A DNA stretch of 3,786 nt from IMG/VR virus record IMGVR_UViG_2548876938_000007; one strand, 5' to 3'. A program made the position numbers and the translations under genes. Shown here piece after piece: positions 1 to 3,786 of the stretch. The first letter of the stretch is position 1; each line of letters begins with the position of its first letter. The notes under the pieces were generated by a model, which ran no database searches, was not told the DNA's origin, and saw only the letters and a program-made list of their open reading frames with translations. Source of the DNA: a virus. Taxonomy: Duplodnaviria; Heunggongvirae; Uroviricota; Caudoviricetes.

Positions 1-996
1 TTATGGACGCATTATGGACATTCCTGACACCGGGTTAAGAGTCACAGCATCTTGTAAGAAATCCGGTGCAAAGTGTGCGTAGGTCATAGTTTGCTGAATG
101 TTAGAATGACCCAGGATGCGCTGCAATGTGATTATGTTACCTCCATTCATTATAAAATGTGTGGCAAATGTATGCCTCAAAACATGCACTGCCTGTCCGT
201 CAGGTAAATCGGGTTTTACTTCCCTGAGAGCGTTACGCACTTTGTAGTAACTGGCATTAAAAAGCCTGCCTGAATTTTTGGTCTTGATCCGTTTAATCAG
301 ATCCTGCGAAACGGGAATTGTCCTGCGCTTTCCGTTTTTAGTTTTCATAAACGTAACCATCTGGTTAATGATGTGTTCAGCTTTTAAATTAGACACTTCA
401 CTCCAGCGTCCACCAGTAGAAAGGCAGACCAGAGTTGCATTTAATTCATCACCATCGAGCATGGATAACAGCCGCGTAATCTCTTCACTGGACAAAAAAG
501 CCATTTCCGTAACAGCTTCACGTAACCGCTTAACCTCACGGAACGGGTTATGAGAGTGGTATTCACCGGCGTCAATTAACTTGGTGAACATACCGCTCAT
601 TATTGCCAGATGACGATTTACGCTGGCTGGTTTTAGACCATCGTTCATCATTACAACGCGATAATCAGTTATCGTTTTCTTTGTTAGCTGGTCAGCTCTG
701 GACACTCCCATTTCTGCAAATTTGGCGATTATTGTCGTTAAACGCCCCCGTTCAATATCCCCCCGCTCATGCGATTTTCCGTGATATATCCACCATCGGC
801 CTAACAACTCGGTAAGAGTTCGGCGATCGGCTGGTTTCTCTATCCACTCTTTGTTGTGGTAGTTAACCAGAACATGACGCTCGAATGCTTGAGCTTCACC
901 TTTAGTTTTAAATTTCCGCCTGATACGTTTTCCATCTGCACCCTGCGGCCTGACGTCCACTTCATAACGACCATCATCGAGCTTTTTAATAGACAT
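1..996 (-). CDS. int: Tyrosine-type site-specific integrase (phage integrase family), 331 aa
   Basis: Complete ORF on the minus strand: ATG at 996..994, stop TAA at 3..1. SD-like GGAGGG (complement of 1002..1007) lies 4 nt upstream of the ATG. The C-terminal region carries the tyrosine recombinase signature (VLRHTFATHF ... LGHSNIQQTMTYAHF with the presumed catalytic Tyr). N-terminus MSIKKLDDGRYEVDVRP resembles P2/186-type integrases. Confidence 0.93.
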   Translation of the reverse strand: MSIKKLDDGRYEVDVRPQGADGKRIRRKFKTKGEAQAFERHVLVNYHNKEWIEKPADRRTLTELLGRWWIYHGKSHERGDIERGRLTTIIAKFAEMGVSRADQLTKKTITDYRVVMMNDGLKPASVNRHLAIMSGMFTKLIDAGEYHSHNPFREVKRLREAVTEMAFLSSEEITRLLSMLDGDELNATLVCLSTGGRWSEVSNLKAEHIINQMVTFMKTKNGKRRTIPVSQDLIKRIKTKNSGRLFNASYYKVRNALREVKPDLPDGQAVHVLRHTFATHFIMNGGNIITLQRILGHSNIQQTMTYAHFAPDFLQDAVTLNPVSGMSIMRP

Positions 997-1089
997 AAAG
1001 CCCTCCGATGATGCTGTTTACTGCTACTACTTGAAAATTAATGCAATTTTCTTTCGTACATTTACTGCACACATATGCTGAATAAATCG

Positions 1090-1389
1090 TCAGCCAGTCT
1101 TTTGGTCTGAGTGGTGCAAGGTTGTTGAGTCTTGCCCAATGTGTGCGAGAGCTGGGGCTATTTGACCAGCTGCGGGATCAGTTTCATCAAACATGAACCA
1201 ATCACGGTATTTACGGAATCTTGGATGTTTTAGAAGTCGCACCACTGCATCATGTGAAATAGATGATTTCCCATTTTCGTACCCTACATACGTAACGTAA
1301 TTAATACCTGTCATTTCAGCTACTTCCTTCTTCTTGAGCCGTTCAGACTCACGGATAAGTTTTAGCTTTTCACGAATCTCAATTGACAT
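1090..1389 (-). CDS. C: Immunity repressor, P2 C-like, 99 aa with N-terminal helix-turn-helix
   Basis: ORF on minus strand, ATG at 1389..1387, stop TGA at 1092..1090. Length is exactly 99 aa, as in P2 repressor C. HTH-like segment KKEVAEMTGINYVTYVGYENGK. C-terminal GQIAPALAHIGQ...SDQKTG matches my recollection of the P2 C C-terminus. Position immediately upstream of int and divergent from cox is as in P2. Confidence 0.85.
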   Translation of the reverse strand: MSIEIREKLKLIRESERLKKKEVAEMTGINYVTYVGYENGKSSISHDAVVRLLKHPRFRKYRDWFMFDETDPAAGQIAPALAHIGQDSTTLHHSDQKTG

Positions 1390-1493
1390 AATGAATCAGA
1401 TCTCTTATTTTTAATCCGTTGTGATATTCCACATCTAACTCTAGTCAACTCCAACTAGCTTTAGTTAGTGGGGCCAATTAGGAGAATAGCAAA
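1383..1493. promoter_or_regulatory. Lysis-lysogeny switch region: candidate early promoter (rightward), candidate repressor promoter (leftward) and operator-like repeats
   Basis: Rightward candidate: -35 TTGACA at 1383..1388 (overlapping the repressor start codon), 17-nt spacer, -10 TATTTT at 1406..1411. Leftward candidate: -35 TTGACT (complement of 1443..1448), 16-nt spacer, -10 TATCAC (complement of 1421..1426), a weak -10. Repeats: AACTC at 1437..1441 and 1447..1451 (10 bp apart), AACTAG at 1453..1458, and an imperfect inverted repeat CTAACTCTAG (1435..1444) / CTAAAGTTAG (1459..1468). Exact promoter and operator assignments are not resolvable by eye. Confidence 0.5.
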
Positions 1494-1850
1494 ATGAATG
1501 TCGGATCTGAAATTTCTGACGAGACAAGACAAGAACTCTCCGTTCTCACAAAAGCAAAGCGTGATTCCGTTAAATTGGCGGCGGCACCATCAGACTTGCT
1601 GTCGAAAGAAGGTTTTGCGCTTTACATCGGCAAGACACCACGAGCGGTGGCTGAAATGGCGAAAGCAGGAAAGCTGCCAGCCTTTTACATGACAGACCCA
1701 TTAAAGCCGGGAGGTCATGCTGAGTTATGGATTAATCGGCGTGAGTGGGACAAGTACGCAGCACAGCTAGTCGAAGAAGCTCCATCAGAATGGCACGACT
1801 GGAAAAATCGCATTAGTTACAGCAAATCAAGACATGGCCGTGCGGCTTAA
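1494..1850 (+). CDS. cox: Cox-like excisionase / early-promoter regulator, 118 aa
   Basis: ATG at 1494 is preceded by AGGAGA (1480..1485) with 8-nt spacing; stop TAA at 1848..1850. The central segment FALYIGKTPRAVAEMAKAGKLPAFYMTDP...AELWINRREW resembles the P2 Cox HTH-like core as I recall it. It is the first gene of the rightward operon, divergent from the repressor. About 27 aa longer at the N-terminus than P2 Cox (91 aa). Confidence 0.75.
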   Translation: MNVGSEISDETRQELSVLTKAKRDSVKLAAAPSDLLSKEGFALYIGKTPRAVAEMAKAGKLPAFYMTDPLKPGGHAELWINRREWDKYAAQLVEEAPSEWHDWKNRISYSKSRHGRAA

Positions 1851-1860
1851 GGTGGACAGG

Positions 1861-2031
1861 ATGAATGAGCCGCGTTGTATTGCTCAGTTATTGCGTAACG
1901 AAAGCCCCAGGGCGATTGATTTCACCATCACCCACGGGAAGGGTCGCAAAGGAATCATTATCCGCACTAAAAAACAGAGTCCATTAAAGAAGGCTCTGAC
2001 CTTTCTGAAAAGCCGGAGGGTATGGAAATGA
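1861..2031 (+). CDS. Small basic hypothetical protein, 56 aa (position equivalent to P2 orf78)
   Basis: ORF-track ORF 1834..2031, but the ATG at 1834 lies inside cox with no SD. The ATG at 1861 is preceded by AAGGTGGA (1849..1856). Stop TGA at 2029..2031 overlaps the next start (ATGA at 2028..2031), suggesting translational coupling. No recognisable domain. Confidence 0.45.
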   Translation: MNEPRCIAQLLRNESPRAIDFTITHGKGRKGIIIRTKKQSPLKKALTFLKSRRVWK

Positions 2032-2528
2032 CAGTGATGACGCTCAATCTCGTTGAAAAACAGCCAGCAGCTATGCGCCGGATAATTGGTAAGCATCTGG
2101 CCGTCCCTCGCTGGCAGGAGACATGCGATTATTATAATCAGATGATGGAACGCGAACGGCTAACGGTTTGCTTCCATGCGCAGTTAAAACAGCGTCACGC
2201 AACGATGCGTTTTGAAGAAATGAACGACGTCGAACGTGAACGACTGGTTTGTGCAATTGATGAATTGCGTGGCGCATTCTCAAAACGCCGTCAGGTCGGC
2301 GCAAGTGAGTATGCATATATTAGTTTTTTAACAGTCAGTCAGCGTCGTACTTTATTTATGCATGCGGGATTGACAGAAAAAGAATTCAATCAGCCGTACT
2401 GGCGAATTAATGAAGAATCATGTTACTGGCGTGATGCTTTATTCCGTGCATTACGTGAATTATTCAGTCTGTTTGAGTATGCACCGACAATTCTGACGTC
2501 GGTAAAACCAGAGCAATATCTGCATTAA
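2028..2528 (+). CDS. B: Replication gene B-like protein, 166 aa (assignment by synteny and length)
   Basis: ORF track gives 2022..2528 (168 aa), but GGAGGG at 2015..2020 is only 1 nt from ATG 2022 and 7 nt from ATG 2028, so 2028 is the likelier start. It overlaps the upstream stop as ATGA. 166 aa equals the size of P2 gpB and the position between cox and the small-ORF cluster is the same. I cannot confirm sequence similarity from memory. Confidence 0.65.
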   Translation: MTVMTLNLVEKQPAAMRRIIGKHLAVPRWQETCDYYNQMMERERLTVCFHAQLKQRHATMRFEEMNDVERERLVCAIDELRGAFSKRRQVGASEYAYISFLTVSQRRTLFMHAGLTEKEFNQPYWRINEESCYWRDALFRALRELFSLFEYAPTILTSVKPEQYLH

Positions 2529-2549
2529 ATAATTAACCAGAGTTTTTAA

Positions 2550-2577
2550 CGCACTTAATCGTGCGGGGCTTCTTTTT
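2550..2577 (+). terminator. Weak hairpin followed by T-rich tract between the B-like gene and the next ORF (possible attenuator or partial terminator)
   Basis: Stem CGCAC (2550..2554) pairs with GTGCG (2561..2565) around loop TTAATC, followed after GGGC by TCTTTTT (2571..2577). Short stem and a gap before the T-run make this weak. Confidence 0.2.
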
Positions 2578-2591
2578 GCCTGGAGAAAGTC

Positions 2592-2816
2592 ATGCATACA
2601 GTTTCTGAAAATCAGTGCGGTAAATACGCATTACTGCTGCAACAGGCCAGAACCGAAGCACAGGCCGATGCTGCGACGCGCTTTTCTTCTCATCTTGACG
2701 CCATGATTCGCCACATCACCAAGGCGGAGTTATCCCGCGTGGAGATAGTTGAGCTGCTCAGTCAGGAGTCGGAAAAATTTCACAATATCGGATTGTCTCG
2801 CGGGGAGGTGCTTTGA
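2592..2816 (+). CDS. Hypothetical small protein, 74 aa (position equivalent to P2 orf80)
   Basis: ATG at 2592 preceded by GGAGAA (2582..2587); stop TGA at 2814..2816 overlaps the next ATG (TGATG). No domain recognised. Confidence 0.7.
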
Positions 2817-3118
2817 TGTCCTGTTCTCGTTCGGTTGTATTACTGAATAACGCCTTAAAAATCGCCGTTATGAAAAATGGTGATTTGTCTCTTATTCAAC
2901 TTGGTATTGATAAAGAGAAGCGCGAAATAACTGAATCTGTTATCGCGATTTATCAGAGTGAATTAAACCTCCTGTCTGATGTGGTCAATTTACTTGTTAA
3001 ACGCGCTGTATTCCACAAGCAAATTTCCTCAGTGGATGAACTGACAAAATTAACGACAGAACTCGCCAGTTATTGCGCTGATGAATTTAAGAAGCTGAAC
3101 GACAAAAGGAGCTGGTAA
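2816..3118 (+). CDS. Hypothetical protein, 100 aa, AT-rich, predicted helical (position equivalent to P2 orf81)
   Basis: ORF track starts at TTG 2813, but ATG 2816 is preceded by GGGGAGGTG (2802..2810) at 5-nt spacing and overlaps the upstream stop. Stop TAA at 3116..3118 overlaps the next ATG (TAATG). Hand-counted GC is about 33-38% in three 60-nt blocks (2821..3000) versus about 47-57% in neighbouring ORFs. Confidence 0.7.
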   Translation: MSCSRSVVLLNNALKIAVMKNGDLSLIQLGIDKEKREITESVIAIYQSELNLLSDVVNLLVKRAVFHKQISSVDELTKLTTELASYCADEFKKLNDKRSW

Positions 3119-3342
3119 TGCCGGACAACGTGGATTTTATTCAGGAACAACAGGCTGAATTACTGGAGCGCCAGATTAACGCGGCAAGGGTAAAACATTG
3201 CGGTGTTTCTGCGCTGGTTTGCGAAGAGTGTGACGCGCCAATACCTGCTGCCCGTCGTGCGGCTTATCCGTCAGCCACGCGTTGTGTTTCCTGTCAGTCA
3301 GTCTTTGAAGCAAAAAACAAACATTACCGGAGAACGGCATGA
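3118..3342 (+). CDS. TraR/DksA-family C4-type zinc-finger protein, 74 aa (position equivalent to P2 orf82)
   Basis: ATG at 3118 preceded by AAGGAG (3106..3111) at 6-nt spacing. Two Cys pairs, C-x2-C (CEEC) and C-x2-C (CVSC) about 20 residues apart, plus the motif PIPAARR...C..CQ and a C-terminal KHYRR, closely resemble F-plasmid TraR and phage TraR-like proteins. Confidence 0.85.
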   Translation: MPDNVDFIQEQQAELLERQINAARVKHCGVSALVCEECDAPIPAARRAAYPSATRCVSCQSVFEAKNKHYRRTA

Positions 3343-3614
3343 GTATTCGTATTGAAATTGGCGAACGTTATGTCGTTACCAGTGACAGCTTTCAGTTTAT
3401 TCTCCACGAGAAAAAGAGAGCGGAAAGCGGTAAAAACGCCGGTCAGGAATGGCTGGCGGTGGTTGGTTATTACCCGAAATTAGGCCAGCTCGTTTCCGGC
3501 CTGATGCATCACGATATTCTGACCGGAAGCGCAAAATCTTTTGCTGATTTAAACGCGCAGGTTGAGCAACTCAGCAAGCGTTGTTCAGAGGCTTTTGGCT
3601 CATATGGCCGTTAA
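3339..3614 (+). CDS. Hypothetical protein, 91 aa (position equivalent to P2 orf83)
   Basis: ATG at 3339 overlaps the upstream stop (ATGA); GGAGAA at 3329..3334 lies 4 nt upstream. Stop TAA at 3612..3614. No domain recognised. Confidence 0.7.
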   Translation: MSIRIEIGERYVVTSDSFQFILHEKKRAESGKNAGQEWLAVVGYYPKLGQLVSGLMHHDILTGSAKSFADLNAQVEQLSKRCSEAFGSYGR

Positions 3615-3773
3615 AGCCTCCGGGCGTTTTGTCCCTCCGTCAGCATTTACCGCAGGCACCGGTAAGGCGTTTACCGGCACCGGCTCACCAAAGGTGAATG
3701 CCTCCATTTTCGGGGCGCTGGCGGTCATTTTTTTTGCCGCAGGTTGCGGTGTTTTCCCTTTTTTCTTGCTCAT
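3600..3773 (-). pseudogene. Q: Possible 5' fragment of a portal protein gene (P2 gpQ-like N-terminus), 57 codons then stop
   Basis: Minus-strand ATG (complement of 3771..3773) is preceded by GGAG at 8-nt spacing (TGGAGTTTTACTGATG, complement of 3771..3786). Translation MSKKKGKTPQPAAKKMTASAPKMEAFTFGEPVPV resembles the N-terminus of P2-family portal proteins as I remember them, then diverges (NALPVPAVNADGGTKRPEALTAI) and stops at 3600..3602. Too short for the ORF track. The assignment is from memory only. Confidence 0.3.
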
Positions 3774-3786
3774 CAGTAAAACTCCA
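3604..3786 (+). CDS. A: 5' end of a replication initiator gene A-like ORF, open to the window edge; possibly truncated or chimeric after about codon 25
   Basis: ATG at 3604 overlaps the end of the upstream ORF by 11 nt. The frame is open to position 3786, which is why the ORF track did not list it. The first 25 residues MAVKASGRFVPPSAFTAGTGKAFTG match my recollection of the P2 gpA N-terminus; the following TGSPKVNASIFGALAVIFFAAGCGVFPFFLLISKTP is Phe-rich and hydrophobic and corresponds to the antisense of a lysine-rich ORF start on the other strand. Confidence 0.5.
   Translation, partial: MAVKASGRFVPPSAFTAGTGKAFTGTGSPKVNASIFGALAVIFFAAGCGVFPFFLLISKTP

Follow-up and report, generated by a model that had tools for sequence, protein, structure and literature searches.

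We analysed a 3,786-nucleotide (nt) stretch of DNA from the IMG/VR virus record IMGVR_UViG_2548876938_000007, referred to here as the window, and sequence comparison identifies its last 190 bases as a deletion scar that joins 25 codons from the start of the replication gene A to 34 codons from the start of the portal gene Q. Positions 1..3677 form the collinear left arm (int, C, cox, B, orf80-83 and the start of A) of an Escherichia coli P2-like prophage of the family that inserts at pflA. Taken as a whole, the window is best explained by a collinear A-to-Q deletion in the left arm of such a prophage, with a break in A at a recurrently used position and, as we infer, a step carried out by the integrase; we assign a probability of about 0.8 to this combined reading. 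That the deletion is real and took place in vivo is, in our judgement, very probable. Overall, this is ordinary decay of a P2-like prophage, and the element is a dead prophage of a well-known kind.

The joint was located in a three-line alignment with the intact prophage of strain H9Ecoli (L001), in which identity to gene A extends to position 3677 and identity to Q begins at 3672, the hexanucleotide TACCGG being common to both. Alignment to intact relatives places the end of gene A identity at A nt 74, and a megablast search of 3300..3786 against 5,426 complete E. coli genomes returned hundreds of 100% matches, all of which stop at 3677 inside genes annotated as 'replication endonuclease'. 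On the other side, 3672..3786 is identical at 115 of 115 nt to the start of Q and the end of P in dozens of phages and hundreds of genomes (Peduovirus and E. coli). The matching genes are annotated as 'phage portal protein' and 'terminase ATPase subunit' at 100% identity, and the identical references include L001, L016 and many phages. At the level of the genes, A nt 68-74 is joined to Q codon 34. The two flanks match one strand of the intact prophage and are collinear with it, indicating that the event is a plain deletion. The shared short sequence is kept in a single copy and no filler bases are present, as in a microhomology-mediated deletion. When 200,000 A-to-Q joints were simulated at random positions on L001, the two ends shared 6 nt or more by chance with P = 0.002.

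An earlier note on this DNA, made from the sequence alone, had proposed a microhomology deletion from early A to early Q in a P2-type prophage, and the proposal holds well, as the two flanks are 100% identical to relatives in which they are collinear and 4.9-6.8 kb apart. The microhomology itself is present but shorter than proposed, namely the 6 nt TACCGG at 3672..3677 rather than the 7 nt TACCGGC, because all 13 relatives examined carry GGT, not GGC, at A codon 25. The start of the portal gene does run in the direction that was described as inverted, but this is the native orientation of Q.

The open reading frames (ORFs) that cross the joint tell the same story at the protein level. Reading from 3604, the plus-strand ORF gives MAVKASGRFVPPSAFTAGTGKAFTG, which is the first 25 gpA residues of intact relatives, and then turns into a Phe-rich string, in agreement with the suggestion that about 25 gpA-like codons precede such a string (25/25 residues match before the divergence). 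The minus-strand ORF of 57 codons, which had been likened to the portal protein, is identical to gpQ over its first 34 residues and then diverges. A run of eight T was found at 3728..3735, as had been described. The terminase gene P had been predicted to lie beyond 3786, and this was borne out in part, with the 3' end of P already visible at 3773..3786. The note had also allowed that there is no breakpoint and that the plus-strand ORF is the intact start of a different early gene. This was an a priori possibility from the note alone, but it is excluded by the 115/115 identity to Q and P and by the two protein prefixes; moreover, the plus-strand ORF has no Pfam family and no counterpart among about 15 billion proteins, a collection in which the chimeric ORFs, in any predicted form, found no match. 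We consider its probability negligible.

The length of the deletion depends on the reference, with 4.9-6.8 kb overall in the four relatives measured (4,868 nt against L017, 5,645 nt against L019, 6,571 nt against L012 and 6,809 nt against L001). Gone from gene A are codons 26-761, and with them the ori nick site, and from Q codons 35-344; the cargo hotspot between the two genes and cos are lost as well. The ori nick of P2 is annotated at NC_001895:29892, which corresponds to A nt 1859, within the lost part, and this region is absent from the window. Intact relatives encode an initiator of 755-764 amino acids (aa) with the PF05840 domain (Phage_GPA, about 760 aa), whereas the window holds a 61-aa ORF without a Pfam match. 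Likewise, only codons 1-34 are left of a portal gene that normally encodes about 344 aa with the PF04860 domain (Phage_portal), and the 57-aa ORF that contains them has no Pfam match. The int, C, cox, B and orf80-83 genes are still full length, with int, C and cox identical to widespread alleles.

P2 gpA acts in cis on the ori within its own gene. With gpA and ori both lost, the element is unable to replicate and cannot be complemented; the loss of cos means that it cannot be packaged, and the loss of the portal means that it can form no heads and provide no helper function for P4. Expression of the immunity repressor and the integrase would be retained and immunity should persist, as judged from the intact genes. 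With int, C and cox intact, excision appears possible in principle. Early transcription would now enter the antisense of Q and P. The joint thus shows another way in which a P2-like prophage dies, with ori, cos, portal and defence cargo lost at once while immunity and integrase are kept. The earlier note had listed the bulk of A, the tin/old locus, cos and most of Q as the lost content. This stands for A, cos and Q, but the cargo need not have been tin/old, as relatives carry other genes there. The A-Q locus is a known defence hotspot adjoining cos (Rousset et al. 2022, PMC9122126), and its cargo in close relatives comprises SIR2 with DUF87, two Ser/Thr protein kinases, reverse transcriptases, or an S8 peptidase paired with an AAA ATPase. 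Among L012-L020, L001, L026 and L029, the hotspot was also seen to hold a ParB-like protein alongside a cytosine methyltransferase.

The A-side break is not unique to the window. A homology search with the chimeric ORF recovered the protein P0001, in which gpA residues 1-43 are fused to the same antisense-Q string. P0001 represents another, independent A-to-Q joint; the prophage is of the P2 type and occupies the yegR site (L022 10001..10215, at a contig end of GCA_020689665.1). There, codon 43 of A runs into Q about 6 nt away from the Q-side break of the window, and the contig ends 87 nt past the joint. The L022 joint may have arisen from an L024-type joint by a further deletion via the 8-nt repeat ACCGGCTC. 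Many short gpA N-terminal proteins were recovered as well, and a second homology search, with native gpA residues 1-110, enlarged the set to 81. We tabulated the roughly 66 of these 81 that still have the gpA start, and once contig-end partials and local frameshifts had been set aside, about 35 rearranged forms remained. In public E. coli assemblies, these forms cluster sharply at five breakpoints in the first 250 nt of gene A: nt 70, after F23-G25 (three events: the window, P0032 and P0037); nt 127, after L42/T43 (13 proteins with at least nine different partners); nt 162, after L55 (4-5 events); nt 172, after I58 (two events); and nt 246, after V82 (ten events).

The joints were verified on the DNA in L024-L027, L031 and L032, and those of L028 and L029/L030 were also read at the DNA level (a slash marks the joint, and brackets enclose bases shared by both sides). 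From nt 70, L028 reads GCGTTTA/TGGTCATG, leading to nt 531 in a prophage with a pflA-type integrase as in the window, and L029/L030 reads GCGTTTA/GGGATG in a prophage with a P2-type integrase. From nt 127, L024/L025 reads CCCCTTAC/CGGCTCCC, leading to nt 1908; L026 reads CCCCT[TA]ATGCAC; L027 reads CCCCT[TA]TCCGC; and L031 reads CCCCTTA/TCCGCG, leading to nt 2131. From nt 246, L032 reads CCCGGTG/ATGTGG, leading to nt 955. The position A nt 69-70 (TTA/C; 3672..3673 in the window) is the break in the window, in L028 and in L029/L030, each with a different partner. With these aligned joints we could show that gene A broke at a non-random position, one nucleotide being used in independent deletions. 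The events at nt 127 and nt 246 have so far been found in P2-type prophages only and both pflA-type events are at nt 70, in what are small numbers. A further break in L034 (P0006), at A nt 165, is uninformative, with a partner that is unreadable since the contig ends 77 nt later.

Several other causes of the joint or of the clustering were considered. The clusters are not gpA nick sites, as the annotated ori nick (gcgcctcG/gagtcc) is unrelated to the hot sites. Chi sites were sought near the endpoints, but the sole GCTGGTGG in the 15-kb reference sits in cpxR and is irrelevant. Restriction and religation would give this exact joint, both endpoints being R^CCGGY sites (ACCGGT and ACCGGC), but this does not extend to L028 and L029, which break at the same TA with partners that have no CCGG. 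Deletion associated with excision of an insertion sequence, which could fix left breakpoints, was also considered; no insertion sequence was seen at the joints examined, and no further search was made.

We then compared the break sites with the attachment (att) cores of these prophages. The core AAAAAATAAGCCCGTGTAAGGGAGATT is found at either end of P2-type prophages, and its central 10 nt, reverse-complemented, recur without mismatch at A nt 119-128. The 27-nt core was scanned over gene A on both strands, with the GTG/TAA point of the core set on the breakpoint. Against the P2 core, nt 246 matches at 16/27 positions (top 0.04% of gene A positions and strands), nt 127 at 15/27 (top 0.2%), nt 70 at 13/27 (top 0.8%), nt 172 at 12/27 (top 2%) and nt 162 at 11/27 (top 4.8%), and two of the partner sites also score well, nt 2131 at 15/27 (top 0.2%) and nt 1908 at 13/27 (top 0.8%). 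Of some 4,500 combinations of position and strand in gene A, only 16 score 14 or more, and the five hot sites all have one orientation relative to the P2 core. The attP of the window integrase, reconstructed from strain E94, is GCTACCAAGTCAGTTA/TTGGTGACATT with the identity core GTCAGTTATTGGT. Relative to this attP core, A nt 70 matches at 13/27 positions (top 0.65%), and at 8/13 positions of the identity core (top 0.4%).

These similarities raise a possibility, which we hold at a little below even odds, that the break in the window was initiated by the integrase of the prophage at a pseudo-att core in gene A and sealed via the 6-nt identity. P2 int is co-transcribed with C from Pc, and the integrase proposed to act here is the product of a gene directly downstream of C on the same strand. 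It would occasionally cleave pseudo-att cores in gene A, and the broken A end would be joined to a distal site with few shared bases, sometimes another pseudo-core (nt 2131 or nt 1908) and more often a site that shares TA alone or, as in the window, TACCGG. More generally, and more tentatively, we suggest that pseudo-att cores at A nt 70, 127, 162, 172 and 246 may be broken occasionally by the prophage's own integrase to give recurrent, nucleotide-precise deletions of the replication module, with the window as one product. If this is true, the integrase would be a built-in driver of prophage grounding, which would help to explain the fixation of prophages in bacterial chromosomes and would provide a mechanism for the replication genes being the core genes most often inactivated as pseudogenes in defective P2 elements (PMC13586616).

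A real deletion independent of the integrase has an appreciable chance of its own, though one below even. It would be a RecA-independent microhomology event through TACCGG, either replication slippage or alternative end-joining (A-EJ) by RecBCD and LigA after a double-strand break. The 6-nt, filler-free joint falls within the 1-9 nt of microhomology that A-EJ is reported to use in E. coli (Chayot et al. 2010, as cited in 10.1101/605246). The Q-side site has no att likeness, and the break interrupts the inverted repeat CACCGGTA/TACCGGTG in its 3' arm, of which 6/8 bases are left in the window; this 8-bp hairpin may assist such an event. However, A-EJ alone predicts no recurrent endpoint, and the break in gene A recurs: two further independent deletions, whose partners are unrelated, use the same TA, and all five breakpoint clusters are att-core-like in one orientation. 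A purely random microhomology process predicts neither the recurrent TA nor the att-like clusters.

The reading of the window as an integrase-initiated A-to-Q deletion has to be weighed against a number of observations. Most partner sites share TA only and are mostly not core-like, and the Q-side site of the window matches its own attP core at 9/27 positions, which is not core-like. Tyrosine recombinases cut at the edges of the spacer, and the crossover that we place in gene A is in the middle of the presumed core spacer, not at its edges. The statistics of core likeness are post hoc, and the independence of the events known at the protein level is assumed from their different partners. The joint has no independent support elsewhere, and the window ends 109 nt beyond it. 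Finally, L019, the sole locus with a 100% identical left arm, differs from the window at 5/115 Q-side positions, on account of which the right arm could derive from another allele or another prophage.

The last two observations bear on whether the joint is real and internal to one prophage. It was found in none of the complete E. coli genomes (0/5,426), nor in phage or plasmid records, GTDB representative genomes, IMG/VR or metagenome contigs of the Joint Genome Institute, and this absence, together with that from the protein collections, indicates a private event. Such uniqueness, and the proximity of the joint to the end of the window, would also be expected of an assembly or sequencing chimera, that is, a chimeric read or a contig-end tip from a cell in which the prophage is intact, and the second A-to-Q joint, in L022, is similarly close to a contig end. 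We nevertheless regard a chimera as very improbable. Random chimeras would seldom join two halves that are collinear and co-oriented and lie 5-7 kb apart in cis; a de Bruijn misjoin needs k-1 identical bases, not 6; and the joint is preceded by 3.67 kb of sequence without branches. The A-side break also matches, to the nucleotide, breakpoints that lie inside long contigs in L028 and L029. The contig ends are accounted for by P and Q being multi-copy in many E. coli genomes (median 2, up to 7 places per genome), causing contigs to stop there. We also considered using the positions of single-nucleotide polymorphisms in relatives to infer the k-mer of the assembler (the Q-side stretch is 115 nt here and 89 nt in L022); no test was obtained from this, and it was set aside as speculation.

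The Q allele of the window raises a separate explanation, in which gene A of this prophage was joined to Q of a second P2-like prophage in the chromosome by a large chromosomal deletion or rearrangement. Many genomes do carry several P2-like prophages, and the mismatch with L019 on the Q side would fit. However, P2-like phages are mosaic, the Q allele of the window is the commonest one, and L012 is 1 nt off on each side; a joint between two prophages would delete or invert large stretches of the chromosome and is far less parsimonious. We therefore consider it improbable and retain a deletion within one prophage.

Defective (grounded) P2-like prophages of E. coli have been described (PMC13586616, PMC6379469), and like the window they keep a P2 backbone, have lost mobility functions and are struck in the replication gene. 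The published elements typically keep their defence cargo, whereas the window has lost the A-Q hotspot with ori, cos and portal. Its deleted interval corresponds to the P2 A-Q (tin/old) hotspot (Rousset et al. 2022, PMC9122126) plus the two flanking core genes; turnover at the hotspot normally swaps the cargo and leaves A and Q intact, but in the window both flanking genes are truncated. In lambdoid phages, prophages are known to become grounded through Int-dependent rearrangement at secondary att sites within them (PMC6379469), and Int-promoted rearrangement at such sites is attributed, in that source, to HK022 (Dorgai et al. 1993, cited in PMC6379469). Here, likewise, the breakpoints are att-core-like and recur at the same nucleotide across independent lineages, and the int gene is intact. 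Unlike in the lambdoid systems, the integrase here is of the P2 family and the sites lie inside the replication gene. The partners are mostly not att-like, so the gene A joints are not clean site-specific exchanges. Secondary att sites of lambda itself were reportedly described by Shimada et al. in 1975.

The features of the window are collected in the table below.

Table. Features of the 3,786-nt window, listed from the left end with the basis for each assignment.
Feature	Position	Strand	Basis or remark
int, integrase, 331 aa, full length	1..996	-	Pfam Int_N and Phage_integrase; window starts at the stop codon
C, immunity repressor, 99 aa, helix-turn-helix	1090..1389	-	Co-oriented with int; position as for C in P2 NC_001895
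Promoter-like site upstream of cox	1383..1411
cox, 118 aa, excision directionality factor and Pc repressor	1494..1850	+	Pfam Phage_Cox, E=5e-30
Replication gene B, 166 aa in relatives	2028..2528	+	PF26815 Phage_RepB called in relatives with 100% identical nucleotides
orf80-83 homologues	2592..3614	+	Pfam matches; synteny with P2
DUF2732	2592..2816	+	Pfam; orf80-83 block
DUF5405	2816..3118	+	Pfam; orf80-83 block
TraR/DksA zinc finger	3118..3342	+	Pfam; orf80-83 block
DUF5405 (second copy)	3339..3614	+	Pfam; orf80-83 block
Chimeric 57-codon ORF: Q codons 1-34, then 23 codons antisense of A	3600..3773	-	No Pfam match
A' remnant, replication initiator A codons 1-25	3604..3678	+	25/25 residues identical to gpA of L001 and L019; no Pfam domain left
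Chimeric ORF: A codons 1-25, then antisense Q; runs off the window	3604..3786	+	Predicted 69 aa if P continues as in relatives
8-bp inverted repeat in the intact A allele, CACCGGTA-N7-TACCGGTG	3657..3679	.	Read directly from the sequence and the alignment
Deletion joint TACCGG, single copy here, present at both endpoints in intact prophages	3672..3677	.	Three-line alignment
Q' remnant, portal codons 1-34	3672..3773	-	34/34 residues identical to gpQ of L001
Terminase ATPase gene P, 3' end	3773..3786	-	Stop 3773..3775 overlaps the Q start codon; L001 terminase 11758..13530 maps from window 3773

The identity of the prophage was established from the left arm. L019 is identical to the window at 3677/3677 nt (100%) over 1..3677, L012, L017 and L014 differ by 1-2 nt, and nucleotide identity to Peduovirus genomes and E. 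coli prophages in general is 96-100%. The ORF listing and Pfam scan gave the left-arm order of P2-like phages, int-C-cox-(orf78)-B-orf80-83-A with a divergent C/cox switch, and the same order is found in P2 (NC_001895). The exact integrase protein occurs in 1749 blocks of public assemblies, always adjoining pflA, and many E. coli assemblies encode this integrase and a Cox identical to that of the window, in every case between pflB and pflA. On the basis of these exact proteins and the near-identical loci, the host is E. coli or a very close relative and the element, as assigned by sequence, is a Peduovirus-type prophage that integrates at the 5' end of pflA. We asked whether the window begins with an att repeat, and rejected this, as the 13-nt core GTCAGTTATTGGT sits 92 nt outside the window.

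Some further observations concern the relatives and the individual genes. Gene A of L019 (12111..14186) is shortened, encoding 691 aa versus about 760, and this closest relative may itself be replication-defective. Several relatives have a gene for 3'-phosphoadenosine 5'-phosphosulfate (PAPS) reductase inserted between orf83 and A. In the Cox protein of the window (1494..1850), the Pfam Cox domain covers residues 27-106, and the protein is thus extended at its N-terminus by about 26 residues compared with P2 Cox (91 aa). A terminator-like hairpin with a T-run, a consensus match only, lies at 3735..3751 on the plus strand, antisense to the start of Q and now downstream of the truncated A. As seen in E. 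coli E94 (L021 12079..12095 and 39569..39640), pflA-family phages integrate into codons 2-5 of pflA through the att core given above and replace the start of pflA with a phage-supplied extension of 20 codons (MSNLTNCNTTENTAAAGATK), and a lysogen therefore makes PflA with a new N-terminus. The E94 prophage, a member of the same family, has fragmented tail-fibre genes and an IS5 insertion in its A-Q hotspot (L021 18955..21471 and 30849..31817).

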